Positions 12,352-64,000 are shown, numbered from the stretch's first letter. The stretch is 64,000 nt of DNA from Candidatus Magasanikiibacteriota bacterium (GCA_030650025.1 JAUSEN010000024.1:563-64562), one strand, 5' to 3'. A program made the numbers and translations. Notes: generated from the letters alone by a model not told the origin.

Positions 12352-13569
12352 GTGAGTTATCAACAGGGGGAGGAGCATAGCTATAGGCTGGTGGCTGATT
12401 TTTTGCTATACTATAGGTATATGCTGTTTGGTAAACCCCATTCATTTTTGGGTATTGATCTTGGCGCCGGGGGCGTAAAATTAGTAGAACTAAAAACCGA
12501 GAAACACCGACCGGTTCTTTTTACTTATGCCGTCACAACCGATGGCCAGGACGTGCATCGCTTGCTCCACGAGAGCGTGAACACTCCCGAAGAAGGGAAA
12601 AAACAAAACCAGGCCAAAGTCAAAGAGTACGCGGCGGTTTTAAAGGCGGTTTGCGCCCGCGCCAACGCCAAGTCCAAGAACGCGGTCGTGAGCTTGCCGG
12701 TGTCGTCGGTATTTCATGCTTTGGTAACTTTGCCAGCGGCCAAGAAAGAAGATTTCGATCATTTTTTAAAAGCAGAAGTAAAGAAACTCCTGCCCTACCC
12801 GCTCGAGGAAGCAGTCTTGGATTATCAAATTTTGCCCGGGGAGGAAAAAGCTACCACCAAGCGGGTTTTGGTGAACGCGGTGCCGCGTGATTTGGTGGTT
12901 TTTTATACCGAGGTGTTTGCCGAGGCTGGCCTTAAGCTCGAGGCGCTCGAGCCCGAGTCCGTGGCCTTGGCTCGGTCTTTAATCGGGCGCGACCAGTCTG
13001 TTACCATGCTGGTGGATGTGGGGGCGGAGCGCACTAATTTTTTTATTATTGATGGGGGTGTTCCTATCACGCACCACAGCACTGAAGTGGGCGGCAATCG
13101 TTTAACAGCGATTTTTAAAAATATTTGGCAAGTGGACAGCGCGGCCGCGGAAATTTTGAAGATGGATTTATTTACGGAATTAACGCGCGGCAGTAACCAT
13201 GCGGCTGTGTCCCCCGACCCGTCTGCCGTCCCGCTTCGCCCGCGAAGCGAGGCGAGCGAGGCAAGCCGATTTAAAGCGCTGACCCTGCCGGTGGTGGATC
13301 CGATTTTAAAGGAAATACAGTATGGTTTTGAGGTCTATTTAAAGCAGAGCGGCAACGAGCAGAAACGCCCAGAAAAGGTAGTTTTGACTGGCGGAGCGGC
13401 TTTTTTACCATACCTCTCCGAGCAAATAGCGGCCAATTTTAAGATTAAGTGCTTTATTGGCGACCCGTGGGGGCGGGTTCTTTACCAAGATAGGCTAAAA
13501 CCGATTCTGCGCGCGGTAGGGCCAAGGCTAGCGGTGGCTATTGGCCTAGCATTGCGCAGTATGGTATAA
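12352..13569 (+). CDS. pilM: Type IV pilus assembly ATPase-like protein PilM; carries an in-frame GC-rich hairpin insert
   Basis: It has the actin-like fold signature FLGIDLGAGGVKLVEL. The GC-rich insert encodes PDPSAVPLRPRSEASEAS. Confidence 0.8.
   Translation: MSYQQGEEHSYRLVADFLLYYRYMLFGKPHSFLGIDLGAGGVKLVELKTEKHRPVLFTYAVTTDGQDVHRLLHESVNTPEEGKKQNQAKVKEYAAVLKAVCARANAKSKNAVVSLPVSSVFHALVTLPAAKKEDFDHFLKAEVKKLLPYPLEEAVLDYQILPGEEKATTKRVLVNAVPRDLVVFYTEVFAEAGLKLEALEPESVALARSLIGRDQSVTMLVDVGAERTNFFIIDGGVPITHHSTEVGGNRLTAIFKNIWQVDSAAAEILKMDLFTELTRGSNHAAVSPDPSAVPLRPRSEASEASRFKALTLPVVDPILKEIQYGFEVYLKQSGNEQKRPEKVVLTGGAAFLPYLSEQIAANFKIKCFIGDPWGRVLYQDRLKPILRAVGPRLAVAIGLALRSMV
13232..13249. repeat. In-frame GC-rich palindrome cgcttcgcccgcgaagcg inside pilM
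   Basis: The palindrome is read from the sequence. It sits in a locally GC-rich segment of the coding sequence. Confidence 0.6.
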
Positions 13570-13642
13570 TAGTATCCAGGCGTGTTATAATATAAATTAA
13601 GCATAATCAGCAATAAAAGGGGGCTAAAATTAATTCAGAAAG

Positions 13643-13700
13643 CGCCGCGCTTCAGCGGATCCCGACTTAGTCGGGACGCGGCATGAATTTGTCAATTCAT
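13643..13700 (+). promoter_or_regulatory. Conserved leader element (copy 2), with an extra small hairpin (tcccgac-tta-gtcggga) inserted in its loop. Its ATG is the start of the response-regulator ORF
   Basis: The motif gcgccgcgcttcagcgga[...]cgcggcatgaatttgtcaattcat is the same as at 9373-9420. Confidence 0.4.
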
Positions 13701-14081
13701 ATGGAAAAAAATAAAATAAATATTTTACTAGTTGAAGACGATATTTTTTTGGCCGGAATTTACCAGAAGAAGTTTGAAATGGAAGCCTATAAAATAGTGG
13801 TGGCGGATAACGGCGAGAAGGCGCTCGTAGAAGCCAAAAAGAAAAAATTTGATATAATTTTGCTTGACATTTTGCTCCCTAAATTAGATGGGTTCGCGGT
13901 CTTAGAGAAACTTAAAGCTGACCCGGAGACTAAACCGATCCCGGTAATTTTGTTGACGAATTTAGGCCAAAAAGATGACGTGGACAAGGGTTTGCAAGCC
14001 GGCGCCGTGGATTATTTGATTAAGGCGCATTTTAAACCATCGGAAGTGGTGGATAAAGTGCGGGCGGTTTTGAAAATTTAA
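13683..14081 (+). CDS. Response-regulator receiver domain protein (CheY-like, stand-alone)
   Basis: LLVEDD, DIILLDILLPKLDG and a conserved Lys region are present. Confidence 0.8.
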   Translation: MNLSIHMEKNKINILLVEDDIFLAGIYQKKFEMEAYKIVVADNGEKALVEAKKKKFDIILLDILLPKLDGFAVLEKLKADPETKPIPVILLTNLGQKDDVDKGLQAGAVDYLIKAHFKPSEVVDKVRAVLKI

Positions 14082-14126
14082 GCCGCGTCGGTCATTTTTG
14101 AAAAGTATCATTTTTATAATGAATCT

Positions 14127-14564
14127 TTGGAAGGAGGTGACACTATGAATAAAAAAGGCTTTACTTTAATTGAACTTTTGGTTGTTATCGCTATTATTGG
14201 CTTATTGTCCACTTTGGCGGTAGTAGCGCTCGGTAGCGCCCGCGTTAAAGCGCGCGATTCCAAGCGTTTAAGCGATCTTAAACAGCTCCAGACAGCATTC
14301 GAACTTTATTACACCGATCAGAACGCTTATCCAGCGGGAAGCGGCGTCACTTTGGGTTCAGGAGACTATGCTTGTCTGAACGCGACTGGCTTCGCGGCCA
14401 CTGGCTGTGCCACCCCTTATATGGGCCAAGTTCCTAAAGATCCAAAAGACTTCACTTACGTATATACTTTAGCCTCCAGCACCTATAGTGTGGCGGCGGA
14501 GCTTGAGGGTACGGTAAACGGTTTGACTGGCGTGATTTCTTTGTCTCCGGCTGGAATTAAATAA
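14127..14564 (+). CDS. Type IV pilin (prepilin with an N-terminal methylation motif)
   Basis: [19 protein letters not shown] is the class III signal peptide. Confidence 0.85.
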
Positions 14565-14672
14565 TTGATAAGCAATTACAAAAAAATCTCCCCCTCGATA
14601 TTTACTCCGGGAGATTTTTTGTTTACTTAAAATAGTTTTTTTGCTATAATATATGCGATTTTTAGTATTTTT

Positions 14673-15503
14673 ATGGCGTTTGACAGCCTACAACTAGCAG
14701 TATATTTGCTTATTAGTTTACTCGGACTTTGTTTTGGCAGTTTTGTGAATTCTTGGATGTGGCGAGTAAAAAATACACGCGAAAAGATTGGGAGGCGCAG
14801 TGTTTGTGTGCATTGCGGCGAGAAAATTATTTGGTACGACAATATTCCGTTATTTGGTTTTTTGCGGTTGCGTGGGCTTAGCCGGTGCTGCCGCCGACCG
14901 ATTCCGCAAGATTATTTTTGGGTGGAGCTCGCGGGAGGGTTCTTGTTTTTATTAGTCGCTCTTTATCATCTCAACTTAGTTATTTTTAATCCCGTTTTTT
15001 TTGCTCGGGATTTATTTTTTATTTGTATTCTGTTGGTAATCTTTTTATATGACGCCAAGTATCAGTTAATTTTAACTGGAGTAGTGGCGGCCGGGGGGTT
15101 GGGCGGTTTTATTTTTAATTTGTTCACCGCGCGGCCATTTACTACTTATATTTTGCTTTTTAATCATAATGCCGCGGCGATTGCCAGCAATCTGGCGCTC
15201 GGAGCCATAGTCGGGTGGGGTTGGTTTGCTTTCCAATATTATGCCTCGCGCGGTAAATGGGTGGGCGGCGGCGACGTGCGCCTCGGCGCTATGCTCGGCC
15301 TCTGGCTCGGCTGGCCGCTTATTCTGGTTTGTTTATTTTTTTCCTATATTCTTGGTGCTCTGGTGGCAGTGCCGTTGTTAATACTCAAGAAAAAGCAGTT
15401 TGGTTCGGCTCTGCCGTTTGGGACTTTTTTAGCAGTCGGGGCAGTGATCACGATTTTTTATGGCCAGCCAATTTTCAATTGGTATTTGAGGTTTTTAGGG
15501 TAA
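14673..15503 (+). CDS. pilD: Prepilin peptidase (A24 family)
   Basis: An N-terminal CxxC...CxxC zinc module, multiple transmembrane helices and the conserved GGGD-containing region are present. Confidence 0.8.
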   Translation: MAFDSLQLAVYLLISLLGLCFGSFVNSWMWRVKNTREKIGRRSVCVHCGEKIIWYDNIPLFGFLRLRGLSRCCRRPIPQDYFWVELAGGFLFLLVALYHLNLVIFNPVFFARDLFFICILLVIFLYDAKYQLILTGVVAAGGLGGFIFNLFTARPFTTYILLFNHNAAAIASNLALGAIVGWGWFAFQYYASRGKWVGGGDVRLGAMLGLWLGWPLILVCLFFSYILGALVAVPLLILKKKQFGSALPFGTFLAVGAVITIFYGQPIFNWYLRFLG

Positions 15504-16230: not shown

Positions 16231-18324
16231 ATGGCTGTTTCTAAAGAAGTACAATTAAGAGTGGAAAAATTACGGGCGCAAATTGATGATTTGCGTTATC
16301 GTTACCATGTTTTAAACGAGCCTGGTATTACGGACGCGATGTATGACCCGCTCATGAAAGAGCTCCGTAAATTAGAGGAAGAATATCCAGGCTTGATTAC
16401 TCCTGATTCCCCCACCCAGCGCGTGGCCGGCGCGCCCGCCGAAAAATTTGAAAAAATAAAACACGCGGTAACGCAGTGGAGTTTTAACGATGCTTTTAGC
16501 GAGGAAGATATAAAAGATTGGGAAGAGAGAATTCTCAAAATATTGGAGAAGTCACTAGGCCAGAGGCCGAGTGACTTAGATTATGTCTGTGAATTAAAAA
16601 TAGACGGCCTGCATATTATTTTGACTTATGAAAATGGTTTTTTGAAAACCGCGGCCACGCGCGGCAACGGGTTGGTGGGGGAGAATGTGACGCAAAATAT
16701 CAAGACGATTGAGAGCGTGCCGCTAAAAATAAAATTATCGGACGTAAGGAACGCATATATGCGTTCCTTACAAAGTGAGGTTTTAATTGTCGAGGGCGAG
16801 GCGTGGCTGGGAAGTTCAATGCTCCAAAAAATAAATAGTGAGCGAAAAAAAATCGGTGAAGCGCTGTTCGCGAACCCGCGTAACGCCGCGGCCGGGACAC
16901 TGCGGCAGTTAAATGCCAAAATTGTGGCCGAGCGAAAATTATGTTTGACGGCTTATGATATTTCGAGCGCTCACGCGCCAGAGACTCAGGAAGCAGAATT
17001 AAAAATGCTCCGCGAATTAGGTTTCAAGACGGATATACATTGGAAGGTTTGTAATAATTTGGAAGATATTTTTAAGTTTCATCAGTTTTGGCAAAAAAAT
17101 AAGTCGAGCCAAGAGTTTTGGATTGATGGCGTGGTGATAAAAGTTAATCAAAAAAGATATCAAGACGCGCTTGGCTTTACTGGCAAAGCGCCGCGTTGGG
17201 CGATTGCTTACAAATTTCCGGCCGAGCAGGGGACTACTAAAATTAAAGAGGTCTATTGGCAAATCGGCCGAACCGGCGCCTTGACACCAGTCGCGCTGAT
17301 GGAGCCAGTTAAGCTGGCAGGCACCACTGTTACACACGCAACGTTACATAATTTTGATGAAATAGAAAGGCTTGGGGTAAAGATAGGAGATAGTGTGGTG
17401 GTGGAAAAGGCGGGGGATATTATCCCCAAAGTCGTGCGGGTACTTGAGAAGATGCGCGCGGGCCAGGAAAAAATTATTCACGCTCCGGTTAAGTGCCCGC
17501 TCTGTGGCGGAGAGGTGGGCCGTAGGGGCGCGGTTTCCGCGCCCCGGGGCGGGGAGACCCCGCCCCTACGCCAGGAGGTTTCGGTCGCTCTGTATTGTCT
17601 AAATAAAAATTGTTTTGCCCAGGAACTGGGACGTATTATTCACTTTGTCTCCAAAAAAAGTTTTGATATTGATCATCTCGGTGAAAAAATTATTGAGCAG
17701 CTGGTGAACGAGGGGATTATTAAAGACGCGGCTGATTTGTTTACGCTGACAGCCGGAGACTTGGCGCCGCTTGACCGATTTGGCGCCAAATCCGCGGAAA
17801 ATTTAGTGGCGGCTGTGGCGCAAGCCAAAACAATTACTCTCGCTCGTTTTATAAATGCTCTTGGCATAACGCATGTTGGCCAAGAAACGGCCGAAGATTT
17901 AGCGCAAAATTTTCAAACTTTAGATAAATTAATGAATGCGCGGCGTGAAGATTATACGGCAATTTATGGCGTAGGGGAGAAGGTGACAGGCTCGCTCGCG
18001 GCGTATTTTACGGACAAAAATAATCAAAAATATATTAAAAAATTATTGGGTAACGGCGTAGTAATTGCCAAGGTTGAAATTAAGAAAACTGGCGGTAAGT
18101 TGGCGGATCAAACTTTTGTACTAACAGGAACTTTAGAGAGTATGAGCCGCGATGAAGCTAAAGCTAAAATCAAAGCCCTAGGGGGTGAGGTAAGCGAAAG
18201 CGTGAGCGCCAAGACTACGGCGGTCATCATAGGGGATAATCCGGGGAGTAAGTTGCAAAAAGCCGAGAAGCTAGAAGTAAAAGTATTAAATGAAAATGAA
18301 TTTCAGAAATTACTGGGAGTGTGA
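16231..18324 (+). CDS. ligA: NAD-dependent DNA ligase; carries two in-frame palindromic inserts
   Basis: The adenylation region, OB fold, zinc finger (CPLCGGEV...LYCLNKNC), HhH and BRCT regions are recognisable. The inserts encode NAYMRSL and RRGAVSAPRGGETPPL. Confidence 0.9.
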   Translation: MAVSKEVQLRVEKLRAQIDDLRYRYHVLNEPGITDAMYDPLMKELRKLEEEYPGLITPDSPTQRVAGAPAEKFEKIKHAVTQWSFNDAFSEEDIKDWEERILKILEKSLGQRPSDLDYVCELKIDGLHIILTYENGFLKTAATRGNGLVGENVTQNIKTIESVPLKIKLSDVRNAYMRSLQSEVLIVEGEAWLGSSMLQKINSERKKIGEALFANPRNAAAGTLRQLNAKIVAERKLCLTAYDISSAHAPETQEAELKMLRELGFKTDIHWKVCNNLEDIFKFHQFWQKNKSSQEFWIDGVVIKVNQKRYQDALGFTGKAPRWAIAYKFPAEQGTTKIKEVYWQIGRTGALTPVALMEPVKLAGTTVTHATLHNFDEIERLGVKIGDSVVVEKAGDIIPKVVRVLEKMRAGQEKIIHAPVKCPLCGGEVGRRGAVSAPRGGETPPLRQEVSVALYCLNKNCFAQELGRIIHFVSKKSFDIDHLGEKIIEQLVNEGIIKDAADLFTLTAGDLAPLDRFGAKSAENLVAAVAQAKTITLARFINALGITHVGQETAEDLAQNFQTLDKLMNARREDYTAIYGVGEKVTGSLAAYFTDKNNQKYIKKLLGNGVVIAKVEIKKTGGKLADQTFVLTGTLESMSRDEAKAKIKALGGEVSESVSAKTTAVIIGDNPGSKLQKAEKLEVKVLNENEFQKLLGV
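16744..16771. repeat. In-frame palindrome gtaaggaacgcatatatgcgttccttac (variant of the gtagggaacgcatatatgcgttccctac family) inside ligA
   Basis: A 28-bp perfect palindrome that translates to RNAYMRSL. Confidence 0.8.
17522..17569. repeat. In-frame composite palindromic element gtagggg[cgcggtttccgcg]cccc-gggg[cgggg-aga-ccccg]cccctac inside the ligA zinc-finger loop
   Basis: Two adjacent GC-rich hairpins sit between gtagg and cctac ends. The element lies between the cysteine pairs of the zinc finger. Confidence 0.8.
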
Positions 18325-18354: not shown

Positions 18355-21300
18355 ATGTATATAAAGTGGTTTAACGAACTCACAATTAAAGACATCCCGC
18401 TTGTCGGCGGCAAAAATGCCAGCCTCGGCGAGATGTACTCTAAATTAACGCCTCAAGGCCTCCCCGTGCCCAATGGTTTTGCTTTGACAGCCGAGGCTTA
18501 CCGAGCCTTTATTAAAAGCAATAAGCTTGATAAAAAAATTAAGGATATTTTGCGCGGATTGAATAAAAAAAATGTGCGCGCCTTGGCTAAGGCGGGCCGC
18601 GCGATTAGAGAGTTAATTTTGCATGGTGAATTTTCGCTAGAGTTGAAAAATGAGATAAAAGCAGCCTATAAAAAACTGGGGAGTGGAGACGTGGCCGTGC
18701 GCAGTAGCGCCACGGCCGAAGATTTGCCGGACGCGAGTTTCGCGGGGCAACAAGAAAGTTATTTAAATGTTTGCGGCGAAAAAGAAATTTTAGATGCTTG
18801 CCGCAAATGCATAGCTTCACTTTTTACGGATCGCGCGATCTCGTATCGAGAGGATAAAGGCTTTGATCACCTGTCTATCGCTCTCTCGGTCGGCGTGCAG
18901 GAGATGGTGCGTTCGGATATGGCTGTGAGCGGCGTTATGTTCACACTCGACACAGAATCCGGGTTTCGCGGCGTGGTTTTGATTAACGCTTCTTATGGCC
19001 TTGGCGAGTATGTGGTAAAAGGCCAAATTACTCCCGACCAATTTTATGTTTTTAAAGATCGTGCTAAGCAAGGCTATAAATCTATTATTAACCACCGCCT
19101 GGGCAGTAAAGAAGTCAAATTAGTTTATGGTAAAACTGGCTCCGGAACCAGACAGCAAAAAGTAATCGCGGCAGACCGGAATCGTTTTTGTTTAGCTGAC
19201 GACGAGGTTTTGCAATTAGCGAAATGGGGCATGCAGATTGAGGAGCATTATGGCCACCCTATGGATATTGAATGGGCGAAAGATGGCCTTACTAATCAGC
19301 TTTATATCGTGCAGGCGCGTTCGGAAACAGTTAAATCGCGCGGCCTGACTAATGTGCTAGAAACGTATCGCCTGGGGCGTCGGGGAAAAGTTTTAGCGAG
19401 CGGCACAAGTGTTGGCCAAAAAATTGGCCAAGGCAAAGCGCGTATTATCGCGAACCCCAAACAAATGAAATTGTTTAAGCCGGGCGAGGTGCTGGTGACC
19501 AGAATTACTGATCCGGATTGGGAACCAATAATGAGAATTGCCAGCGCGATTGTGACAGAACAAGGCGGCAAAACCAGCCACGCGGCCATTGTGAGCCGCG
19601 AACTGGGGGTGCCCTGCGTGGTCGGAGCCGCCAAAGCGCGCCAGTTAGTCAAAAATGGCCAAGAGATTACCGTCTCGTGCGCTGAAGGCGAGGTTGGTTA
19701 TGTGTACGCAGGCCGCTTGCCGTTTGAAGTCGAAAAAATTAAAGTGGAGGGCATTGCTAAAACCCGCACAAAAATAATGATGAACGTGGCCGACCCGGAT
19801 AAAGCTTTTTCTTTAACGCACCTCCCGAATGATGGGGTGGGGCTGGCGCGTGAAGAATTCATTTTTACTAATTACATTAAAATTCACCCGCTCGCTCTTA
19901 TCAATTATAAAACCAGGCCACGCGCGGTTAAAGCCAAGATTAACGCTCTGACGGTTGGCTATAAAGACAAAACCGAGTATTTAGTAGAAAAATTAGCCGA
20001 AGGGATCGCTTTTATCGCGGCGGCTTTTAGCCCCGGTGAAGTTATACTCCGTTTTTCTGATTTTAAAAGTAATGAGTACGCCACTTTAATCGGCGGGGCT
20101 GATTTTGAACCCTCTGAAGAAAACCCCATGCTTGGTTGGCGCGGGGCGGCGCGCTATTATGACCCTAAATTTAAACCAGCGTTTCATTTAGAATGTAAGG
20201 CTATTAAACGAGTGCGCGAGGTGTGGGGGCTTAAGAATGTAATCGTCATGGTTCCGTTTTGCCGCACCGTGGAAGAAGGCCAGAAAGTTTTGGCGACAAT
20301 GAAGGAATTTGGCTTAGAGCGCGGCCAGGACGGTTTACAAGTTTATGTGATGTGCGAAATTCCGTCCAATGTGCTGTTGGCGAAAGAATTTAGCGAAATT
20401 TTTGATGGGTTTTCGATTGGCAGTAATGATTTAACGCAATTAACGCTTGGCGTTGACCGCGATTCGGCTTTGGTCGCTCATGTTTATGACGAAAAGAACG
20501 CGGCCGTGAAAAAGTTAATTCGGGAAGTTATTAAAGTGGCGCATGAGAATAAACGGAAAGTGGGGATTTGTGGCCAAGCACCGAGCGATTATCCGGAATT
20601 TGCCGAATTTTTAGTGCAAGAGGGGATAGATAGCATTTCGCTCAATCCGGATACGGTTTATAAAACTCGCCTTCGGATTGCGGGTATGGAGAAAAAGTTA
20701 GGGGTAAAGCCTCTCGCGTCGTCTGTAGGGAACGCATATATGCGTTCCCTACCAGCAGGTAGCCAGGCCGTGGCCATGCCAACTTCTAAAACGCTCTCTA
20801 AAATCGCTTCGCGCGCGGTGACAACGCTTGGCGTGTTGGCTTTGGCTGTGATGATCCTCGGCGTGACGTGCCAAACGAGCGTAGGGGCGGGCAGTGCCCG
20901 CCCCCTACAGACAGATGATTCAGCTTTAGCTGTCGCCCAAGCCAAGTCGCAAGCGCGGCGTGAGTTTGAAGAGGAGAAAGCCAAAGAAACGCGCGAGTAT
21001 AGTGAGGATAGCTTTGTGAAATTGACAATGAGGTATCCAGCCAGCTGGACAGTTTTTCACGGTAAAAATGATGTTACCTTTTCGTTGCCCACTCCTGATC
21101 CGTCGTATTTAAATGAATGGTTTAGTATTAGTAAAGAAATGCCACTAAAAAACACCAATGATTTTACAATCTTAGTCCGCACCACCACCATTTGGAATGG
21201 TTACGTCGCCAGGCGACTGGAAGTTGTCGCCGCACGTGAAACCGGAACACAGTATTTGGAAATATATCCAGCGTTGCACCGTGGGGGTAATCCGGTGATT

Positions 21301-22609: not shown

Positions 22610-22668
22610 ATGGTTATAAATTATTTTTTGGCTAAATTTAAGTATTTTTTATTATTTCGACCTTTTTC

Positions 22669-22742
22669 GCCGCGTTTTAGTAGACGTTACGCGGCATGAA
22701 TTCGTTAATTCACGTTAATTCACGTTAATTCACGCTAATTTA
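22669..22742 (+). repeat. Conserved leader element (copy 3) followed by about 3.5 tandem copies of a 10-bp unit (ttaattcacg)
   Basis: The motif cgccgcg-N-cgcggcatgaattcgttaattcacg is followed by a direct repeat of ttaattcacg. Confidence 0.4.
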
Positions 22743-22820
22743 TATATACTAATACACTGGATATTAGGTAAAGGTTACAGGGTAAGACATGTGGTCAGAA
22801 CAAGCTGGAGCGTTTTATTT

Positions 22821-25872: not shown

Positions 25873-26023
25873 AATATTATTCTGATATATTTGTGCAAAG
25901 ATTATATCAAAAAAATATTATTTTGTCAATAAATCGGTAGAAATCGTTTTTAGTCAGGAAAATACGTTTTTAAAAATTAACAACAGCCGTTCGCTTAGGC
26001 GAACGGCTGTTGTTAAATGGCAA

Positions 26024-27650: not shown

Positions 27651-27685
27651 CTTGTAGAGACAGGGCACTGCCCTGTCTCTACAAG
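27651..27685. repeat. Intergenic 35-bp perfect palindrome cttgtagagacagggcactgccctgtctctacaag (gtag...ctac-ended, related in style to the in-frame elements)
   Basis: A perfect palindrome between the GC-rich island and rplT. Confidence 0.6.
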
Positions 27686-40548: not shown

Positions 40549-40635
40549 GTCCTACCGGGAACAAAGCCTTGTATATAATAATATTATATATATTTTATAT
40601 ATTATTTAAATACAATTCTTTTTCCCCGGTAGGAC
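40549..40635 (+). promoter_or_regulatory. Conserved leader hairpin, copy 2 (with a longer AT-rich loop)
   Basis: The same stem (gtcctaccggg / cccggtaggac) and downstream ribosome-binding-site block as at 38607-38696. Confidence 0.55.
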
Positions 40636-40676
40636 TCACGCCGAGTTCTCCGAAAGGGATCCTCAAGGAGGATGAT

Positions 40677-42314
40677 ATGACCAAGACCCGCATCGAGGGT
40701 TTCGGCAAGGCGGCCGCGTTGGCCGCAACCCTGCTCGTGGGGACCTTCACGAGCAACGGCTGCGGGAACGGACCGGTCAACCTCACCGTCGTCTACCAGG
40801 ATGACGGCGGCGCGATCCCGACCCCCAGCCCGGACCTCGCCCAGGCCCCGGCCGACCTCGCGGTCGCGCCGGACCTGACGCCCACGCCGGATCTCGCCCA
40901 GGCCCCCGTCGCCGACCTCGCGGTCGCGCCGGATCTGGCCCAGGCGCCCGACCTCACCCCGCAGTGCCCGCAGGGCCTCACCCTGTGCGGCAACCGCTGC
41001 GTCGACCTGACCGTCGACAACGCGAACTGCGGCCGGTGCGGCCAGGCGTGCGCGAATGGCGCCGAGACCTGCTCCAACGGGAAGTGCGTCTCGGCGTGTC
41101 CGCAGAACACGACGTACTGCTGGCAGAACAACGCCGGCTGCACGAACGTGCTCACCGATTCCGCGAACTGCGGGATGTGCGGCAAGGTGTGCCCCCCGGG
41201 GAACACCTGCGCGCGCGGCCAGTGCGCAGTCGACCAGAACCTCAACTGCGGGCAGAAGATCGCCTGCGGCAAGGACTGCATCGACATCGCCAACGACCCG
41301 GTGAACTGCGGCGGCTGTGGCAAGGCCTGCTCGGCCATCAACATCGATGGCAACCCGACGTGCACCGGGAAGGTGTGCACGGGTCAGTGCCGTCCCAATT
41401 TCGGGGACTGCGACAGCAACAAGCTGACCAACGGCTGCGAGACCAACCTCATGACCTCCGTGGGCAACTGCGGCGGCTGCGGGGTCGAGGTCCCGCAGAA
41501 TCTCCCGAACACGAGTTCGTCCATCTGCCAGCTCGGCGCGTTCACCCCGGTCTGCAAGCCCGACTTCGGGGACTGCAACGTGTGGTGGCGCGACGGGTGC
41601 GAGATCAACTTTCTCGCGGACGACAACAACTGCGGCCAGTGCGGCAACTGGTGCGCGTGGGGCGAAGTCTGCCTCCAGGGCGTCTGCAAGGAGCCCCCTT
41701 GCCCGATGAACCAGACCAGGTGCTTCGGCGCCTGCAAGGACCTCTCGGCTGACCCCCAGTACTGCGGCGCTTGCAATCAGGCGTGCAAGCAGGGTGAGAC
41801 CTGCAAGCAGGGGCAGTGCATCGCCCCCCCGCAGCCCGACCTCGGCGGCAACAACGTCGACATGGCGTCGCCGCCGGACCTCGGTACCCCCCAGGGCGAC
41901 CTGGCCCAGGCCGCCAGGTACGAATTGAAGGTCTCGGACCCGAAGCCGGGGACGAACGTCGAGGTGTGGTTGACCTCGAACGCGATGGGGGCGCTCCACA
42001 GCTTTGCCCCCAGCACCTTCAGCCTCTCGGCCGCCGACATCTGCGGCCACATGGTCCGGGGGCAGGTCAGCCCGGGCCTTGAGGGGTGGGTTCGGGACTA
42101 CACCGGGGATCCGGCTGGGAACAGCTGGATCGGCTGCCCGCCCAACCCGCGGGCGGTCACCGAGCTCACGTACGAGTTCGGCCCGGTGGGGATGATGAAG
42201 AAGCCGGTGCCGGCCAAGGGTGTCGGGCAGGTCGACGCCTGCAACGGCATGGGCATGCCGAACTTCTTCATCACCCAGGCCGATCTGGCGGCCGCGGGCC
42301 TGGTCTGCCCGTAG
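40677..42314 (+). CDS. Secreted or lipoprotein-like protein with PDLAQAP repeats and Myxococcus-type cysteine-rich (CGxCG...C) repeats, encoded by a roughly 70% GC ORF (GC-rich cassette 3)
   Basis: The N-terminus MTKTRIEGFGKAAALAATLLVGTFTSNGC is followed by more than ten NCGxCGxxC-type repeats and a C-terminal non-repeat domain. Confidence 0.55.
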   Translation: MTKTRIEGFGKAAALAATLLVGTFTSNGCGNGPVNLTVVYQDDGGAIPTPSPDLAQAPADLAVAPDLTPTPDLAQAPVADLAVAPDLAQAPDLTPQCPQGLTLCGNRCVDLTVDNANCGRCGQACANGAETCSNGKCVSACPQNTTYCWQNNAGCTNVLTDSANCGMCGKVCPPGNTCARGQCAVDQNLNCGQKIACGKDCIDIANDPVNCGGCGKACSAINIDGNPTCTGKVCTGQCRPNFGDCDSNKLTNGCETNLMTSVGNCGGCGVEVPQNLPNTSSSICQLGAFTPVCKPDFGDCNVWWRDGCEINFLADDNNCGQCGNWCAWGEVCLQGVCKEPPCPMNQTRCFGACKDLSADPQYCGACNQACKQGETCKQGQCIAPPQPDLGGNNVDMASPPDLGTPQGDLAQAARYELKVSDPKPGTNVEVWLTSNAMGALHSFAPSTFSLSAADICGHMVRGQVSPGLEGWVRDYTGDPAGNSWIGCPPNPRAVTELTYEFGPVGMMKKPVPAKGVGQVDACNGMGMPNFFITQADLAAAGLVCP

Positions 42315-42486
42315 GCCGCCGCCGATAGTAGTCAAACCGCTTTTGCCCCGAGTCACGCGGGCCGGCCCTGAAAGGAGGCCAAAACGTGACATGGGGTGGG
42401 TCAATGAGACTTCACAGATACGGCAAAACTCACCCCTCCCCAATTGTGTTCATCATCACAAGGTGGTGAATAGAAACTAGGGACAA

Positions 42487-42522
42487 AAAAACCACCCCGA
42501 CGTAAAGTCGGGGTGGTTTTTT
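42487..42522. terminator. Bidirectional rho-independent terminator (aaaaaaaccaccccgac-gtaaa-gtcggggtggtttttt)
   Basis: A perfect hairpin flanked by A-runs and T-runs. Confidence 0.6.
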
Positions 42523-49404: not shown

Positions 49405-50361
49405 TTAATCCCCGGTGATGAGGCAAACGACGGGTCTCGCAAAAACAGACCCGTTTTTTATTGCCTGCCTTAACCCGGCAATTGATAGGGCGCTATTCGG
49501 AGAGATGTTTAGCAGGCAGTGGTTCGCGACTAATTTTTGAGAGGAAATAATTTCGCTATTATTTACTACCAGGCCCTTCCCAGCAGTTGTTTTTAATAAT
49601 TTTAATATCTCGGCTTTGCGATGAGCGATGTGGTCGACGATGGCGGTAGCGAGTGAGACCTCTTTTTTTTCGGGTAGGGAACGCATATATGCGTTCCCTA
49701 CAAACGGATGGCAAGAAGTCGTCTGCACAATAAAAATTTTAATTGATTTATTTAATTTTTTGAAGCCCGCGTAAAGGCCAACGGCGGTGGTGCCGCTTGA
49801 TGTCGGCACAAATATTGCCCCTAGATTTTTTATTTTAGCCAGTTCCGCGGCTAGTTCCTGGTAGCCGAGCGGGGCAAATTTGTCAGTTGATTGGCGTAAA
49901 AATACAACGCCATTATTTTTTGCAAATTGGAAGGCCGATTGTTTGGGGTTTTGAGTTTGTTTAATAACAATATTTTTAGAGGGAGCGGTTTTAAGTAGTT
50001 TGGCAAGTTTTTGGCTGGGAATTTTTGGCCCGACAAAAATTGTCAAATTTATTTTAGGGCTCGCTTTATTTTGATTATGCTTCTTGATGTAAAGAAGAGC
50101 GGCCAGAGCGGCATTGCCCGAAGAAGAAATAACAAAGTTACGCGCGCCGCGCGCCGCGTGCTGGTTAATCATAACCGGTAGAGACCGGCCTTTATGAGAT
50201 CCTAATGGGTGCAAATCTTCGCGTTTTAACCACAGCTCGGTTTTAAGACCCAGAATGGTTGCTAGTTTTGGATATTGCTTTTGAGGAGTTAGCACCTGCC
50301 TGCCGCCTGCCTGTCCGGTAGGCAGGGCAGGCAGGTCTTGATTTATTTTAAATTTCAGCAT
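49405..50361 (-). CDS. PLP-dependent enzyme of the Trp-synthase-beta / threonine-synthase-like superfamily; carries an in-frame palindromic insert
   Basis: HPLGSHKGRS is a PLP-lysine motif. A glycine-rich loop (SSGNAALAAL) follows. The insert encodes GNAYMRSL. Confidence 0.55.
   Translation of the reverse strand: MLKFKINQDLPALPTGQAGGRQVLTPQKQYPKLATILGLKTELWLKREDLHPLGSHKGRSLPVMINQHAARGARNFVISSSGNAALAALLYIKKHNQNKASPKINLTIFVGPKIPSQKLAKLLKTAPSKNIVIKQTQNPKQSAFQFAKNNGVVFLRQSTDKFAPLGYQELAAELAKIKNLGAIFVPTSSGTTAVGLYAGFKKLNKSIKIFIVQTTSCHPFVGNAYMRSLPEKKEVSLATAIVDHIAHRKAEILKLLKTTAGKGLVVNNSEIISSQKLVANHCLLNISPNSALSIAGLRQAIKNGSVFARPVVCLITGD
49674..49701. repeat. In-frame palindrome gtagggaacgcatatatgcgttccctac inside the PLP-enzyme gene
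   Basis: A 28-bp perfect palindrome; this is the third copy of this exact element. Confidence 0.8.
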
Positions 50362-50567: not shown

Positions 50568-52012
50568 ATCAATTCTTCAATCATCCCTCTAAATCCGTGG
50601 CTGCCTAAAAATACGACGACGTCGCCGCTGTTTACTTGGTTTTTTATGTAAGTAATTAGTTTTTGGTCATCATCAATATATTTTACATTGGTATGAGTGG
50701 CGGCGATGACTGTCGCCAGCTCATCGCCTTCAATCGGTAATGCCTTGGTTGGCGAAGTTTTGATTTTTGTCAGCTTCGGCACTATCACTTCGCTTGCCGC
50801 GCTAAAAGCATGCGCGTAGCCCGGTAACGCGGCCGGTTCGCGGTTGCCGGAGTTAGGTTCGAAAACAGCAATAATTTTATTTTTATAAACTTGCCTAAGC
50901 GAGGCGAGGTCGGCTTGGGCTTTGGTGGGAGAGTGGGCGATGGTGTCGAAGACCGTAATTTTTCCGTCCAGTCTTTTTTCTAAACGCCGTTTGACGCCTT
51001 TAAAACTTTTTATGGCCGCAATAATTTTGTTCGGTTCCAGGCCGCATTCCAGGGCCATCGCAAAACAGCCCGTGGCATTGTCGGCCATATATTCGCCAAG
51101 GCAGGTGGTAGCCACTGGATAGCTTTGGTTTTTGTAGAGAATATTGAACGAAACGCCGCTAACAGTTTCAACGACATTGGCATAGACATAGTCGCACCCG
51201 GCGGTTTTGCCATAACTGATAATTGTTTCGCCGTTGTGCTTAATTAGAGGCAAGGCTTTTTCGGAAATTATTCGCAGACCAGTTTTAGGTACACTGTTAT
51301 ATAATTTTTGAAAAACTTCAAAATAGGATTTTTCCGTAGGGTAAACGTCAGCATGGTCCCAGACCACGGAAGTCAGCAGGAGGTGGGTAGGCTTATAATA
51401 GTCAAATTTGGGGCTATTGTCCCAGCGAGCGGTTTTATATTCATCGCCTTCGACGATTGACCACTGACCGTCCAGTAGGGGCACGGCATGCCGTGCCCCT
51501 ACGTTTGTTTGCCCTAAATCAGCGGCTGGCATCTCGTTTAAACTAATACCGCCAAACATGTAACTGGGGTTTATCTTGGCGTATTTAAAAATCCAAGTCA
51601 GTAGAGCGGTGGAGGTGGATTTGCCAAAAGTCCCGGCGCAGACAATAGAATTGGTTTTAATAAAAAAATCACGTATTACTTCGGGGTAGGATTTGTAATT
51701 TAATTTATGTTCCTGCACGTAAAGCCATTCGGGGTTATGTGAGCTGGCGACGTTCCCTACCACAACCAAATTCGGCGCTCCGCTCGCCATCATTTTGTCC
51801 GGATGCCAACCCGGGTAAAAATCAACTCCGGCGTCTTTTAAATGCGTGGAAACCGGCGGGTAAAATCCAACATCACTGCCAGTAATTTTGTACCCGGCCC
51901 CGCCATTCTGGTCGGGGTGAACTTTTTTAAAAGCAATCGCGAGCGCGCTCATCGCCACTCCGCAAATGCCGATAAAGTGAAGGTGTTTAGACATGTAATA
52001 ATAATATTCCAA
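50537..52012 (-). CDS. Mur ligase family protein (Mpl/MurC-like); carries an in-frame palindromic insert
   Basis: HFIGICGVAMSALA...ITGSDVGFYPPVSTHL is Mpl-like, and a GTFGKST P-loop is present. The insert encodes VGARHAVPL. Confidence 0.7.
   Translation of the reverse strand: MEYYYYMSKHLHFIGICGVAMSALAIAFKKVHPDQNGGAGYKITGSDVGFYPPVSTHLKDAGVDFYPGWHPDKMMASGAPNLVVVGNVASSHNPEWLYVQEHKLNYKSYPEVIRDFFIKTNSIVCAGTFGKSTSTALLTWIFKYAKINPSYMFGGISLNEMPAADLGQTNVGARHAVPLLDGQWSIVEGDEYKTARWDNSPKFDYYKPTHLLLTSVVWDHADVYPTEKSYFEVFQKLYNSVPKTGLRIISEKALPLIKHNGETIISYGKTAGCDYVYANVVETVSGVSFNILYKNQSYPVATTCLGEYMADNATGCFAMALECGLEPNKIIAAIKSFKGVKRRLEKRLDGKITVFDTIAHSPTKAQADLASLRQVYKNKIIAVFEPNSGNREPAALPGYAHAFSAASEVIVPKLTKIKTSPTKALPIEGDELATVIAATHTNVKYIDDDQKLITYIKNQVNSGDVVVFLGSHGFRGMIEELITSLRPQSRR
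51475..51502. repeat. In-frame palindrome gtaggggcacggcatgccgtgcccctac inside the Mur ligase gene
   Basis: A 28-bp perfect palindrome. Confidence 0.8.
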
Positions 52013-52506: not shown

Positions 52507-53190
52507 TTAGTTAAAAATTAGTTTAAGTTCAGTTATGTCGATCTTCCATTTCGTTTTGTCCCACCATTGTAGCCCTTCAAATTGCAACTTATATTTATCA
52601 GTCGGGCGGGAAAAACTGCCGAGGTAAACATATTTTTTTCCGGCTTCTTTGGCCCATAAAATTGCTTTTAGCATCATGCCGAGGCCCAGATTTGGTATTT
52701 TTGTTTTCAGATTATAAAAGGGGTAACAGTAGTGGAGGAGTTCGTTGGTTTGCAGGCAGATGGCGTAGCCAACGGCCGATTGTAGGGGCGAACGGCCTTT
52801 CGCCCCTACGCCAGAATCGTCTAATGTATATACCAAAACGCAATTAAAATTGCTTTTATTTTTGTCAGTCAGCAATTCTTTAATTTTATTAGCAGAAAAC
52901 ACTGAACCAAATTTAGTATCATAAAAATCTTTACCAAGTTTGCCAATGTTAAAATGGTAATCGGCGTAGGGGAGAGGGCATGCCTCAAGCTTCACGTCTT
53001 CGGTTTTTTTAAGCACGCGACGGTTTTCGCTGGAGAGCACGAATTTAGATAGATCAATGCGCAGACTCCTGGTTTGATACATCTCGCCCTTGCCCGTGCG
53101 GCCGAACAAATAACCCTGGTGGTACAGGGAGTTGATGTTCTGGTCAGAGAAATCCGTGATGGTTTTTTCGTCCCATTTGAGATAAGCCAT
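52507..53190 (-). CDS. Arginyl/leucyl-tRNA--protein transferase-like protein (ATE_C/Bpt family); carries an in-frame palindromic insert
   Basis: KYVYLGSFSRPTDKYKLQFEGLQWWD resembles the ATE_C YLGYY...KM.YK..F.P.E motif. The insert encodes GVGAKGRSPL. Confidence 0.4.
   Translation of the reverse strand: MAYLKWDEKTITDFSDQNINSLYHQGYLFGRTGKGEMYQTRSLRIDLSKFVLSSENRRVLKKTEDVKLEACPLPYADYHFNIGKLGKDFYDTKFGSVFSANKIKELLTDKNKSNFNCVLVYTLDDSGVGAKGRSPLQSAVGYAICLQTNELLHYCYPFYNLKTKIPNLGLGMMLKAILWAKEAGKKYVYLGSFSRPTDKYKLQFEGLQWWDKTKWKIDITELKLIFN
52782..52809. repeat. In-frame palindrome gtaggggcgaacggcctttcgcccctac inside the bpt-like gene
   Basis: A 28-bp palindrome. Confidence 0.8.
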
Positions 53191-55130: not shown

Positions 55131-56492
55131 CTATTGTGCTTTTATTATTTTGGTTATGATTTTGCCGAGCGCGCTAAAAACACCCGGGGTTTGCATAATA
55201 CCAGCGCGTGCCTGAATGCGCAACCAATCCTCGCCCGGTTTGGTATTGTTATAATATACCACGTTAAATTTGTTTGGTTCCAGTTTTTTTACAAGGGCTT
55301 TTTGTCTGGGTAGGATCCAGGTCGCCTTAGGCGACCTGGATCCTACGTTTTCTGGTACGCGCATTATTATTTGGCTGCCGTTTTTAATGGGAATTATTTT
55401 TTGGTTTTTATAAGGGAGTCCAAGAACAGCGGCGAGATGAGCTTCGAAAGTCGTGATTAATTTGTCATTTGCTCGCCCGGCGGGCTCGGTCGAAATGACA
55501 AGTTGTTGCAATTGGCTTTCATAAGTCGTGCTGGCCGGTTGGCGGGCGTTAATTTCTATCAAATAAATTTTACCGGTTTTCGTTTCGAGCATTACATCAA
55601 TGCCAAATAGACCGCGCCAGTTATGTTTTGCCAATTTTTTTCCAACGGCGGTAGCTATTTTTTTGATTTGATTGGTTTGCTTGGTGGTTAGTAATTTGTT
55701 TGGTAATTTCCAGTCATTGCCAATGGTCGCAAATTGAGAACTGGTAAACGGTGGTAGGCCGGTGATTTGGTAGCTAATATTGCCAGTTAAGACATTTTTA
55801 CTTGCCTCGCCGGTAGGCGGGCCCCAAACAACCGCGTTGACGGTAAAGGCAGGGCCAGAAATATATTTAGTAACGCGGATGGGGCGGTTAGGGAATTGGT
55901 TCGCAATTTCTCGCGTTTGTTTTTTTGATTTTATCAAAGCAGTCCCGCTACCGGTATGGGCGCGATTAAATTGGGCGATAAATTTTTTAGATGTCATCCC
56001 CGACCTGATCGGGGATCCAACTGTCCGGATTCCCGCTTTCGCGGGAATGACAAGTGGCCAAGATAAGCCTTTCCCCAGAACAATTTTATGCGGTGGCAGA
56101 TATTTAGTGAGTGGCCCAAGCCATTTTATTTGCGAGATTTTTTCCTCGACTTGGTTTGCCAGCTCGGCGGGCGGGTTCAGGAGTGTCCAGTTGTGCGCGC
56201 GGCAGATTTTTTCTATCTGGGTAGTATTTTTAAAAACTAAAATTTTTGGCTGTTTGAGCTTGACCAGTATGGACTGAGTCGTTTTATGCCCTAGTAGATC
56301 TAGGGTAGAAAGCAAGGATTTGTTAACAATAAGATGAATATTAGGCAGGTTGCTGGCGGCTGTCTTCGCAAAGGGCGTGGCATTTGTTATAATATGGAAC
56401 CGAGGCGCGCCCGCTAATCCAAAAGCGCGCTCTAAATCGCGCGCTACAAAGACTATTGGATTTTTATGTAAAGCCTTGTACAATGCCTGCAT
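55131..56492 (-). CDS. ATP-grasp domain protein; carries two in-frame palindromic inserts
   Basis: GKIYLIEINARQPAST is an ATP-grasp motif. The inserts encode VGSRSPKATWILP and AGIRTVGSPIRSGMTS. Confidence 0.55.
   Translation of the reverse strand: MQALYKALHKNPIVFVARDLERAFGLAGAPRFHIITNATPFAKTAASNLPNIHLIVNKSLLSTLDLLGHKTTQSILVKLKQPKILVFKNTTQIEKICRAHNWTLLNPPAELANQVEEKISQIKWLGPLTKYLPPHKIVLGKGLSWPLVIPAKAGIRTVGSPIRSGMTSKKFIAQFNRAHTGSGTALIKSKKQTREIANQFPNRPIRVTKYISGPAFTVNAVVWGPPTGEASKNVLTGNISYQITGLPPFTSSQFATIGNDWKLPNKLLTTKQTNQIKKIATAVGKKLAKHNWRGLFGIDVMLETKTGKIYLIEINARQPASTTYESQLQQLVISTEPAGRANDKLITTFEAHLAAVLGLPYKNQKIIPIKNGSQIIMRVPENVGSRSPKATWILPRQKALVKKLEPNKFNVVYYNNTKPGEDWLRIQARAGIMQTPGVFSALGKIITKIIKAQ
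55310..55346. repeat. In-frame 37-bp perfect palindrome gtaggatccaggtcgcc-tta-ggcgacctggatcctac (gtagg...cctac family) inside the ATP-grasp gene
   Basis: Read from the sequence. Confidence 0.8.
55996..56048. repeat. Two adjacent in-frame hairpins (atccccga-cct-gatcggggat and attcccgc-ttt-cgcgggaat) inside the ATP-grasp gene
   Basis: Read from the sequence. They resemble the hairpin inserted into the 13.6 kb leader (tcccgac-tta-gtcggga). Confidence 0.7.
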
Positions 56493-61941: not shown

Positions 61942-62391
61942 TTAGTTGAATCTATTTCGTTCTTTTTTTTCCAACGCGCGTTCAATGTTAACAATAAGGG
62001 CGTTAATTTTTTCTCTAATTTCAGTAATTTCTTCACGTTTTGGAAATTCTGTGAACCTAGTTAAGGAAGGCAAATTGGGCATCACGCAAGCTCCTTCGGT
62101 TGTAAAAATACTCAATGTACCTGGGTCCTTGGCTACTTCTGGGACAAATTGTTCTCTGGCCAGTTCCACAATTCTCTCTTGGCCGACAATCCTATACACA
62201 AACAAATACACAAACAAAGGAATTAATAGGCCGGTTTGTCCATGGAAGCGCACGATGCCATATTCGTTGTCTGCCACGCTGGCCGAGTAACTCGTCGCTG
62301 GTTCGGTAATAGTAATGGCGCGCCTTTTTTCGGTTTCTGGCGTTGTCCCGATTTGTTCTGTCGTCATAGTATCTGAAAAAAGTTTAAACAA
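61942..62391 (-). CDS. Hypothetical 149-aa protein between sufU and sufC, in the position where sufB/sufD would normally be
   Basis: ORF only. It has no recognisable SufB/D beta-helix. Confidence 0.3.
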   Translation of the reverse strand: MFKLFSDTMTTEQIGTTPETEKRRAITITEPATSYSASVADNEYGIVRFHGQTGLLIPLFVYLFVYRIVGQERIVELAREQFVPEVAKDPGTLSIFTTEGACVMPNLPSLTRFTEFPKREEITEIREKINALIVNIERALEKKERNRFN

Positions 62392-62392
62392 C

Positions 62393-62761
62393 TTATTTTA
62401 TAGCATTGTTTATGGCCTTGAGTCCGAGCGTGGCACAGCCAATGCGAGCGGGCGTAATTTTTGGCAATCCCAATATTTTGAGCATTTTTTCGGTAGATAG
62501 TTTAGAAATGTCAGCTTTAGATTTGTTTTTTAAGTAGTCGGTCAAAAGGGAAGTGGCGGCGGTAGAAATGGCACAGCCTTCGCCAGTCCACCCTAGTTCT
62601 GTTATTTTTTCCGCTTTGTCCAATTTAATAAACACATCAATTTCATCGCTACAGAGTGGGTTTTTCTCGTGGCGAGTGAAATCAAAATTTTTTAGCATTG
62701 TTTTGTTCCGTGGGTGGCGGTATAAATCTAGAATATATTCTTGATACAAAGCATCGGTCAT
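62393..62761 (-). CDS. sufU: SufU/IscU-like Fe-S scaffold (NifU N-terminal family)
   Basis: YRHPRN...PLCSDEIDVFI...GEGCAIS...ARIGCATL matches the family. Confidence 0.8.
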   Translation of the reverse strand: MTDALYQEYILDLYRHPRNKTMLKNFDFTRHEKNPLCSDEIDVFIKLDKAEKITELGWTGEGCAISTAATSLLTDYLKNKSKADISKLSTEKMLKILGLPKITPARIGCATLGLKAINNAIK

Positions 62762-62764
62762 AAA

Positions 62765-64000
62765 TTACCCAAAAATTTTCTTAACCTCTTTAATGGCAGA
62801 GACTAGTTTATCAATATCTTTTTTGGTTGTATATACTCCCGCCGAGGCCCGGGCCGTGCCCACCAGTCCCAGGTGTTTGTGGAGCGGCATGGCGCAGTGG
62901 TGGCCAACGCGAACACAGACGCCAGCGCGGTTTACGATTTCGCCGATGTCGTGCGGGTGGGCTCCGGGTATTGTGAATGAGATGACGCCGAGGCGCGAGA
63001 CCTCACCCCGCCCTCTCCTTTGCGAAGGAGAGGGGGTCGACGGGCCGATGATGTTTACGAGCGGCGTTAATTTTTCTAGCGCGTAATCGGTCAGCCTTTT
63101 TTCATGAGCAACAATTGTGTTCATGCCAATTTTGGTAATAAATTCGGCGGCCGCGCTAAGGCCAATCGCTTCGGCAATCGGCGGCGTGCCCGCCTCAAAT
63201 TTATAGGGCACTTCATTCCAGGTAGCTCTTTCGTATGTTACGTCGCTTACCATCTCGCCGCCAAACATAAATGGTTCCAGATGTTCCTCCAGCATTATTT
63301 TTTTACCATACAGTACGCCAATCCCGGTTGGTCCGTACATTTTGTGCCCAGACAAAACTAAAAAATCGCAATCCAGTTTTTTGACGTCAATCGGTAAGTG
63401 CGCGGCCGCTTGCGCCGCGTCCACGATAGTGTAAACTTTCGGAGATTTTTGTTTAGCGAGTTTAATAATTTCCGCGACTGGGTTAATTGCTCCCAAAACG
63501 TTTGAGGCTTGCGTTAAGCTTACGATTTTTGTGTTCTCGTCAATGACGTTGTAGGAATTAGGCTCTAGCTGGTAGCTGGTAGGGTCAAGTTCTATAAATC
63601 TGATTTCAAATCCGTAGTGTTTGGACATTTCCTGCCACGGTACCAGGTTGGCGTGGTGTTCCATCCGAGTAAGCACGATGTTATCGCGGTGCGAGAGGCG
63701 AGGGGATAGCGAGCGGGCGAGCGCGTTTAATCCAAACGTGGCGCCGGAATTAAAAATAATTTCTTCGGGCGCGGAGTTTAAAAATTTCGCCATCTGTTTC
63801 CGCGCGGCTTCATATTTTTCCGTGGCCGTAATACTTATATCATACAGCCCGCGATGCACATTAGAACGGTATTTGGCGTAGTAATCATTCATCGCGTCAA
63901 TCACCACCTGCGGTGTTTGCGTGGTGGCGGCACTGTCCAGATATGCTAAATTCGGGTGCGCGCGGAAGATGGGGAAATGTTGTTTAATTTTTTTGGTAAT
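62765..64000 (-). CDS. sufS: Cysteine desulfurase SufS/IscS (class V aminotransferase). The 5' end runs off the window, and the gene carries an in-frame palindromic insert
   Basis: LSGHKMYGPTGIGVLYG (PLP-lysine) and HHCAMP are present. The reading frame continues upstream of 63907 (FPIFRAHPNLAYLDSAATTQ). The insert encodes PSPSQRRGRGEV. Confidence 0.85.
   Translation of the reverse strand: MTKKIKQHFPIFRAHPNLAYLDSAATTQTPQVVIDAMNDYYAKYRSNVHRGLYDISITATEKYEAARKQMAKFLNSAPEEIIFNSGATFGLNALARSLSPRLSHRDNIVLTRMEHHANLVPWQEMSKHYGFEIRFIELDPTSYQLEPNSYNVIDENTKIVSLTQASNVLGAINPVAEIIKLAKQKSPKVYTIVDAAQAAAHLPIDVKKLDCDFLVLSGHKMYGPTGIGVLYGKKIMLEEHLEPFMFGGEMVSDVTYERATWNEVPYKFEAGTPPIAEAIGLSAAAEFITKIGMNTIVAHEKRLTDYALEKLTPLVNIIGPSTPSPSQRRGRGEVSRLGVISFTIPGAHPHDIGEIVNRAGVCVRVGHHCAMPLHKHLGLVGTARASAGVYTTKKDIDKLVSAIKEVKKIFG
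63011..63034. repeat. In-frame palindrome ccctctcc-tttgcgaa-ggagaggg inside sufS
   Basis: Read from the sequence, with a GC-rich flanking extension. Confidence 0.65.

Follow-up and report, generated by a model that had tools for sequence, protein, structure and literature searches.

Repetitive extragenic palindromes (REPs) of the CGTC superfamily are short repeats in which a CGTC tag (variants TGTC and CCTC) is followed by a stem of 8-9 bp with an AT start and by a tail of approximately CCA, the loop measuring 4 nucleotides (nt) in family 1 and 5 nt in families 2-4 (PMC3733652). They occur mostly as head-to-head dimers (Di Nocera, De Gregorio & Rocco 2013, PMC3733652), have been recorded in five phyla, mostly in Alphaproteobacteria, and have no known dedicated transposase (PMC3733652). 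CGTC-1 corresponds to the dRS3 repeat of Neisseria and to RPE-6 of Rickettsia conorii, and intragenic REPs are already on record: dimers encode 20-30 amino acids (aa), and VIPAKAGI is listed as the peptide read from CGTC-1 units lying inside genes, five of them in R. conorii and one in Chlorobium (C. chlorochromatii) (supplementary table, PMC3733652). In-frame insertion of REPs and of Rickettsia palindromic elements (RPEs), like the CGTC family itself, was known already (PMC3733652). The present analysis concerns a 64-kb stretch of DNA, referred to as the window, from a metagenome-assembled genome (MAG) of Candidatus Magasanikbacteria, a member of the candidate phyla radiation (CPR, or Patescibacteria) with ~46% GC. 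An original prediction for this window had quoted five GC-rich hairpins, one in pilM, two in an ATP-grasp gene, one in sufS and one in an intergenic leader motif, and had read them as small palindromic repeats inserted in frame. It is very probable that these hairpins are copies of REP-type short palindromes which reached fixation within protein-coding genes of a CPR bacterium.

Two further systems resemble these inserts in part. GTAG REPs and REPINs, which are accompanied by REP-associated tyrosine transposases (RAYTs, TnpA-REP) (PMC2817692, PMC3479197, PMC8266576), are likewise short GC-rich hairpins often arranged as inverted doublets, and a trans-acting HUH tyrosine transposase has been proposed as their mobiliser. 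Palindromes of the form GTAG...CTAC coexist in the window, but none of the five quoted hairpins carries a GTAG tag. RPEs (Ogata et al., cited in PMC3733652) are in-frame palindromes in still-functional genes and add extra surface segments to proteins of a reduced, host-dependent genome. As in RPE-bearing genes, the open reading frames (ORFs) of the window that carry inserts are intact, their frame is kept and the insert is absent from orthologs. However, RPE-1 spans ~100-150 bp and is restricted to a genus, whereas the units of the window measure 25-45 nt and belong to pan-bacterial families.

All five quoted hairpins were found as exact matches in the DNA, and searches against Pfam and PDB confirmed the identity of the three host genes (PilM_2, ATP-grasp_3 and Aminotran_5/SufS). 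Loci of relatives were compared as fetched stretches, designated by L numbers and amounting to 3.2 Mb in all; the best orthologs of the host genes are 54-64% identical. The inserts in coding sequence and the hairpins that they contain are the following:

13213..13260, plus strand: 48-nt in-frame insert in pilM, encoding PDPSAVPLRPRSEASE, with CGTC at 13227-13230 followed by the hairpin

13232-13249, plus strand: quoted pilM hairpin, CGCTTCG-CCCG-CGAAGCG, with a 7-bp stem

55992..56057, minus strand: 66-nt in-frame insert in the ATP-grasp gene, aa 146-167, encoding PLVIPAKAGIRTVGSPIRSGMT, a putative heterodimer of two CGTC-type REP units

55996-56016 and 56029-56048, gene on the minus strand: the two quoted ATP-grasp hairpins

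55308..55346, minus strand: third hairpin of the ATP-grasp gene, of GTAG type, GTAGGATCCAGGTCGCC-TTA-GGCGACCTGGATCCTAC, aa 383-395

62996..63040, minus strand: 45-nt in-frame insert in sufS, encoding STPSPSQRRGRGEVS

63011-63034, gene on the minus strand: quoted sufS hairpin

The lengths of these coding blocks (48, 66, 39 and 45 nt) are all multiples of three, the blocks are free of stop codons in the frame of the gene, and each insert is bounded on both sides by contiguous halves of one conserved gene. The 16-aa block PDPSAVPLRPRSEASE is missing in 79/79 aligned PilM orthologs and is therefore unique among 80 PilM sequences. The 22-aa block PLVIPAKAGIRTVGSPIRSGMT is missing in 39/60 ATP-grasp orthologs, where the conserved W-x-G runs directly into KFILQFN, while some insert is present at the same site in 21/60. 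SufS carries ~10-15 extra residues (STPSPSQRRGRGEVS) at a point occupied by a short GP..R.G junction in most of 70 representatives, and its loop is 8 residues longer than that of B. subtilis SufS. An indel is thus present at all three coding sites in the ortholog alignments, and the test by which the original prediction could have been overturned fails. Its two compositional statements were likewise borne out, since the inserts reach a GC fraction of 0.59-0.77 against 0.44-0.51 in the host genes, and Pro, Arg, Gly and Ser make up 0.45-0.73 of the encoded peptides against 0.22. At the level of the whole window, perfect stems of at least 8 bp number 46 compared to 7.6 +/- 2.5 in dinucleotide shuffles, and GC-rich stems 23 compared to 2.1 +/- 1.4. 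None of the five hairpin sequences occurred in 100 shuffles, and folding was far more stable than in shuffled sequence for the ATP-grasp (z = -4.6), sufS (z = -3.4) and leader (z = -4.7) regions.

The insert of the ATP-grasp gene matches a described family. Read on the gene strand, its layout is TGTC-ATTCCCGC-GAAA-GCGGGAAT-CC, a spacer ggacagtt, and GG-ATCCCCGA-TCAGG-TCGGGGAT-GACA, which resolves into two units:

56027..56052, minus strand: REP unit 1, with TGTC tag, stem ATTCCCGC, loop GAAA, stem GCGGGAAT and tail CC(G); putative CGTC-1 type, encoding VIPAKAGI

55992..56019, plus strand: REP unit 2, in the orientation opposite to that of unit 1, with TGTC tag, stem ATCCCCGA, loop CCTGA, stem TCGGGGAT and tail CCA; putatively CGTC-2-like

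Both units show the TGTC tag, the 8-bp stem with AT start, the loop of 4 or 5 nt and the CC(A) tail of the CGTC superfamily, and they share one design in inverted orientation with the tags outside, the arrangement in which the pair reads as a head-to-head heterodimer of a CGTC-1 and a CGTC-2-like unit. The likeness to the published CGTC-1/2 REPs extends from tag, AT stem, loop, tail and dimer arrangement to the identical peptide VIPAKAGI, and the ~22 aa contributed by the intragenic dimer fall within the 20-30 aa of the described ones. Read on the gene strand, unit 2 encodes GSPIRSGMT. The locus departs from the described CGTC REPs in its host, a CPR bacterium, with a DPANN archaeon and a 23S rRNA gene holding further copies, and in the unusually short spacer of the dimer, only 12 nt between stems. 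It also departs in that its units are nearly all intragenic, whereas those of most described genomes are mostly extragenic; in the window 10 genes contain ~14 REP-like units, and just a handful are intergenic. The ATP-grasp protein as modelled by AlphaFold2 has an overall predicted local distance difference test score (pLDDT) of 92.1; its least confident residues are 151-170 (pLDDT 59-71), and residues 381-390, in the block of the third hairpin, reach 65, the lowest values being those of the two REP-encoded segments. These segments are predicted by the model to be permissive surface loops.

Copies of the same palindrome were found far beyond the window. A CGTC-1 search motif (GTCATTCCCGC-N3-5-GCGGGAATCC, 21 specified bases) was matched in at least 120 stretches of a 596-Gb genome collection, where by our own estimate ~1 would be expected by chance. 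Among the matches listed, the motif spans ~20 phyla, including Neisseria and a Nanoarchaeota MAG, and four CPR lineages are represented (Paceibacteria, Parcubacteria, Saccharibacteria and Uhrbacteria). In the copies from other genomes among these matches, GTCAT is preceded by C in 113/165 and by T in 49/165, the tail is CCAG or CCAT in 129/165, and the tags point outward in 22/26 close pairs. Unit 2 is carried by 13 IMG/VR stretches and was found with an identical loop in Uhrbacteria (L099). This last genome, Candidatus Uhrbacteria RIFCSPHIGHO2_02_FULL_57_19, holds a near-identical 62-nt copy of the heterodimer inside its 23S rRNA gene (L099 34-89). The L099 gene leaves conserved 23S sequence just past GAGACAGT, a departure that suggests an rRNA insertion carrying the CGTC repeat. 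In the Nanoarchaeota (DPANN) MAG, for which contamination is possible, a CGTC-1 palindrome lies in frame in a 584-codon ORF and is read as VIPAQAGIQ (L083 1510-1534), with a second REP-like peptide, SCFRRND, just upstream.

The insert of sufS belongs to a different family, the core of which is:

63001..63034, minus strand: sufS element, gene sense CCCTCTCCTT-CGCA-AAGGAGAGGG-CG-GGGTGAGG; CT-stem/GGGTGAGG-tail family

The general form of this family is CCCTCTCC-loop-GGAGAGGG-NNN-GGGTGAGG(G), a polypyrimidine/polypurine stem with an unpaired tail. At 34/37 nt the sufS element is identical to one that another Magasanikbacteria genome (L001) carries in its ATP-grasp gene, at the very loop where the window has the CGTC dimer; the peptides encoded by these two copies are PSPSQRRGRGEVS in SufS and PSPLQRRGQGEV in the L001 ATP-grasp protein. 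Members of the CT-stem family were also found in Dehalococcoidia, Gammaproteobacteria, other Chloroflexota loci and a groundwater contig, and in at least 120 IMG/VR stretches; a metagenome scan with an overly strict 30-base pattern returned a single contig, the groundwater one. On the groundwater contig (L124 84-1001, minus strand) the element lies in frame in a KsgA/RsmA-like methyltransferase ORF, with the peptide PSPSQRRGQGEVS. The same ORF holds a two-hairpin CT-stem composite in frame, SSAEERESEPSPSQRRGQGEVS, laid out as in the L001 ATP-grasp gene. The sufS stem, of 10 bp (CCCTCTCCTT), lies outside the stem definition of the CGTC family. Membership of the CT-stem family in the GTAG and CGTC superfamilies was ruled out by a profile of 149 copies, which contains no tag: conservation is confined to the GGGTGAGG(G) tail and two pyrimidines 5' of the stem, and this sets the family apart from the tagged superfamilies. 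No published description of it was found.

The same protein loops carry different repeats in different genomes. In SufS, an ortholog 59% identical (L380) has the CT-stem family at the same loop in the orientation opposite to that of the window, and another 63% identical (L379) has a different element there, TGTC-ATTCTGAGCGCAGCG, of the TGTC-ATTCTGAGCG family. At the ATP-grasp site of the window, L001, L002 and L003 each carry different hairpin pairs, that of L002 including an element of the TGTC type of L379 and that of L003 being yet another pair. Sequence comparison shows that the same few permissive surface loops have been struck more than once, in independent events that involved different families and both orientations. 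The claim of small palindromic repeats inserted in frame is thereby backed both by the ortholog indels and by near-identical copies of two elements in unrelated genes and genomes. That the hairpins are related to one another holds in part, namely for the two CGTC-tagged ATP-grasp units and loosely for the leader hairpin; the sufS element represents a separate family and the pilM hairpin could be placed in no repeat family. Similarly, the term insertion sequences is appropriate as far as inserted repeats are meant, but these are non-autonomous elements of REP type and not insertion sequences in the strict sense, no transposase being encoded nearby.

Palindromes of the forms GTAG...CTAC and GTAG-GGGCGGGG, which are of the GTAG-tagged REP type and so represent the second REP superfamily, make up another group of in-frame elements, found in Dus, LigA, PPDK, a PALP enzyme, a Mur ligase, an ATE_C-like protein and the ATP-grasp protein:

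2459-2485, 16744-16771, 17520-17566, 20725-20752, 20879-20904, 49674-49701, 51475-51502, 52782-52809 and 55310-55346: in-frame GTAG-type palindromes

Compared with its E. coli counterpart, LigA is lengthened by 9 and 15 aa at these palindromes, the 15-aa extension falling within the zinc-finger loop. The third ATP-grasp hairpin sits in a region that varies among orthologs, most of which are shorter there.

The fifth quoted hairpin lies in a two-stem repeat whose first stem (P1) is GCCGCG...CGCGGC and whose second (P2) is ATGAWTT-N4-AAWTCAT. Three copies of this repeat are present in the window:

13642..13700, plus strand: 13.6-kb copy, P2 ATGAATT-TGTC-AATTCAT, just upstream of the start codon of a response-regulator gene

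13660..13676, minus strand: hairpin nested in the P1 loop of that copy, reading CGTC-CCGAC-TAA-GTCGG-GATCC on the minus strand; a loose CGTC-like variant

9373..9419, plus strand: copy without nested hairpin, just upstream of the corA start codon

22668..22713, plus strand: third, more divergent copy, with no downstream gene on its strand

The original prediction had regarded this repeat as a conserved leader and as an instance of insertion into a regulatory context. In three relatives (L125-L127), however, the intergenic regions that precede the orthologous response-regulator and corA genes do not contain the two-stem motif, no Rfam family was found for it either with the whole window at gathering score or with both leader regions at E values up to 1, and the third copy precedes no gene. 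A conserved regulatory leader was ruled out on these grounds, and the repeat is therefore specific to the genome of the window. The third copy is followed, within 22668-22760, by four tandem 10-mers (CGTTAATTCA three times and CGCTAATTTA) between two minus-strand genes of unknown function, an array that looks like iterons or an operator. The nested hairpin occurs only in the 13.6-kb copy, within the loop of the first stem. Its proposed resemblance to an ATP-grasp hairpin is real in that both its tag and its GGGATCC end recur in unit 2, but loose, because stem and loop differ; elsewhere, a single IMG/VR match at about chance level was obtained.

These observations can be accommodated in a mechanism in which the repeats are non-autonomous GC-rich stem-loops of 20-40 nt. 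They would be mobilised in trans by an enzyme that processes hairpins in single-stranded DNA, for example a RAYT or IS200-like HUH transposase or an equivalent. Selection would then purge those insertions that break the frame, add a stop codon or strike a structured region, and the survivors would be mostly intragenic because coding density is high. Intragenic copies would not be removed but translated as a short Pro/Arg/Gly/Ser-rich loop; that all of them are in frame and free of stops argues for translation rather than excision.

Several observations weigh against reading the hairpins as REP copies. Pfam searches detected no transposase or RAYT-like gene among ~60 ORFs of the window (no Y1_Tnp) nor in any fetched locus, and tblastn with eight RAYT/TIRYT sequences from the supplement of the REP study produced no hit to the window under E = 0.5. 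Since no transposase is known for the CGTC REPs either, the mobilisation step is an inference. The 64 kb contain just one CGTC dimer, one loose variant and one sufS-type unit, and the loose variant, which is the nested hairpin of the two-stem repeat, strays from the CGTC consensus with a 7-bp stem (TCCCGAC) without the leading AT and a 3-nt loop. Neither a target-site duplication nor a target motif was found at the insert junctions, and no empty site was seen in a near-identical genome, the best orthologs being 54-64% identical. Finally, the pilM hairpin is weak (7-bp stem, z = -1.4 against shuffles), and no further copies of it were found by fuzzy matching in the 3.2 Mb of fetched loci or in the IMG/VR scan. 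CGTC precedes this hairpin, but an AT-start stem and a CCA tail are missing. The insertion in pilM itself is real by the ortholog comparison, and it is possibly a decayed repeat unit.

Among the alternatives, it is very improbable that the hairpins evolved in place as functional RNA structures or selected peptide loops and are not repeat copies. The stems are indeed perfect, two compensated changes in the stem separate the two ATP-grasp units, a pattern that would fit selection for pairing, and a role as RNA elements has been proposed for REPs of other bacteria; but the same sequences of 37-62 nt recur in genes without homology, within an rRNA gene and across many phyla, most orthologs are without the insert, and the same loop holds different families or opposite orientations. 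A function may nonetheless have been exapted after insertion. De novo formation of each palindrome at its site by template switching, slippage or quasi-palindrome correction, with the likeness among sites reflecting tolerance for GC-rich stop-free sequence, is an account to which very little credence can be given. It would suit the pilM insert, which has no relatives in the searches and holds short GCGAG repeats, and de novo formation of REPs was left open in the CGTC study (PMC3733652). Nevertheless, the identity over 21-62 nt takes in unpaired tags, tails, loops and spacers, and a motif of 21 bases was found at least 120 times when ~1 was expected; convergence accounts for neither.

Artefacts of MAG assembly or binning, such as chimeric joins or foreign reads, are a most unlikely source of the inserts: the genome is metagenome-assembled and short repeats may confuse assemblers, but conserved gene halves flank each stop-free, frame-preserving insert, and equivalent inserts occupy the same loops in independent assemblies from other samples. 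The MITE reading does not apply. MITEs, or miniature inverted-repeat transposable elements, are likewise small non-autonomous repeats able to insert in frame, but they measure 70-300 bp and have terminal inverted repeats of 15-30 bp and target-site duplications, whereas the units of the window are simple stem-loops of 25-45 nt without duplication; this anatomy and the alignments rule out a MITE, and an intron- or intein-like element as well. That the extra residues are ancestral variable loops which arose without any insertion event has next to no likelihood: the ATP-grasp and SufS sites do vary in length among orthologs, but most of these have a short conserved junction and the residues are encoded by tagged or tailed repeat units identical to copies in unrelated genes.

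Other features of the window are recorded here in their own right. The block 36700-42450 has 58-61% GC within a 46% GC genome, with long ORFs on both strands and ~1.9-kb tandem units that share 100%-identical segments of 66 nt and 55 nt. Two tRNA-like calls with odd anticodon loops fall inside it (38210-38284 and 40035-40108), and its sole Pfam match, in 40569..42314(+), is to Stig1 Cys-rich repeats. Intergenic DNA contains long perfect hairpins, their stems measuring 16-18 bp, at 177-217, 25977-26016, 27651-27685 and 42486-42522, one of them having GTAGAG...CTCTAC ends and one being flanked by A/T runs in the manner of a bidirectional terminator. At 3200-8742 and 12352-15503, a coupling protein like those of type IV secretion systems (T4SSs; TrwB/VirD4-type) and a T4SS pilin adjoin a type IV pilus cluster composed of pilM, a response regulator, a pilin and a prepilin peptidase. 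Such T4SS and type IV pilus genes are ordinary for CPR and relevant to DNA uptake and exchange.

No report of REPs or in-frame palindromes in CPR/Patescibacteria was found in the literature, and searches on the peptides encoded here likewise yielded nothing relevant. The occurrence of the CGTC-1 palindrome, including VIPAKAGI-type copies, in CPR and in a Nanoarchaeota MAG widens the host range well past the five phyla of 2013. To this are added the location of the repeats nearly all within housekeeping genes of a CPR genome, with the copy of one relative in 23S rRNA; the repeated and independent hits on single protein loops by different families and in different orientations; and a second family (CT-rich stem, GGGTGAGG tail) that is equally widespread and stands outside the GTAG/CGTC tag scheme. 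Such inserts can make CPR proteins look more divergent than they are and give rise to spurious ORFs, and repeat-bearing genomes of ~1 Mb narrow the candidates for the mobiliser of CGTC REPs. A broader scenario can be offered only tentatively and is on balance doubtful: the CGTC-1/2, CT-stem/GGGTGAGG-tail and TGTC-ATTCYGAGCG families might be actively exchanged between CPR, DPANN archaea and ordinary bacteria through a mobiliser encoded elsewhere, possibly in a host or a phage, and might time and again be reshaping rRNA expansion segments and the same surface loops in essential proteins of these reduced genomes. If this were true, the mobiliser of the CGTC REPs would best be sought in the tiny gene sets of CPR.

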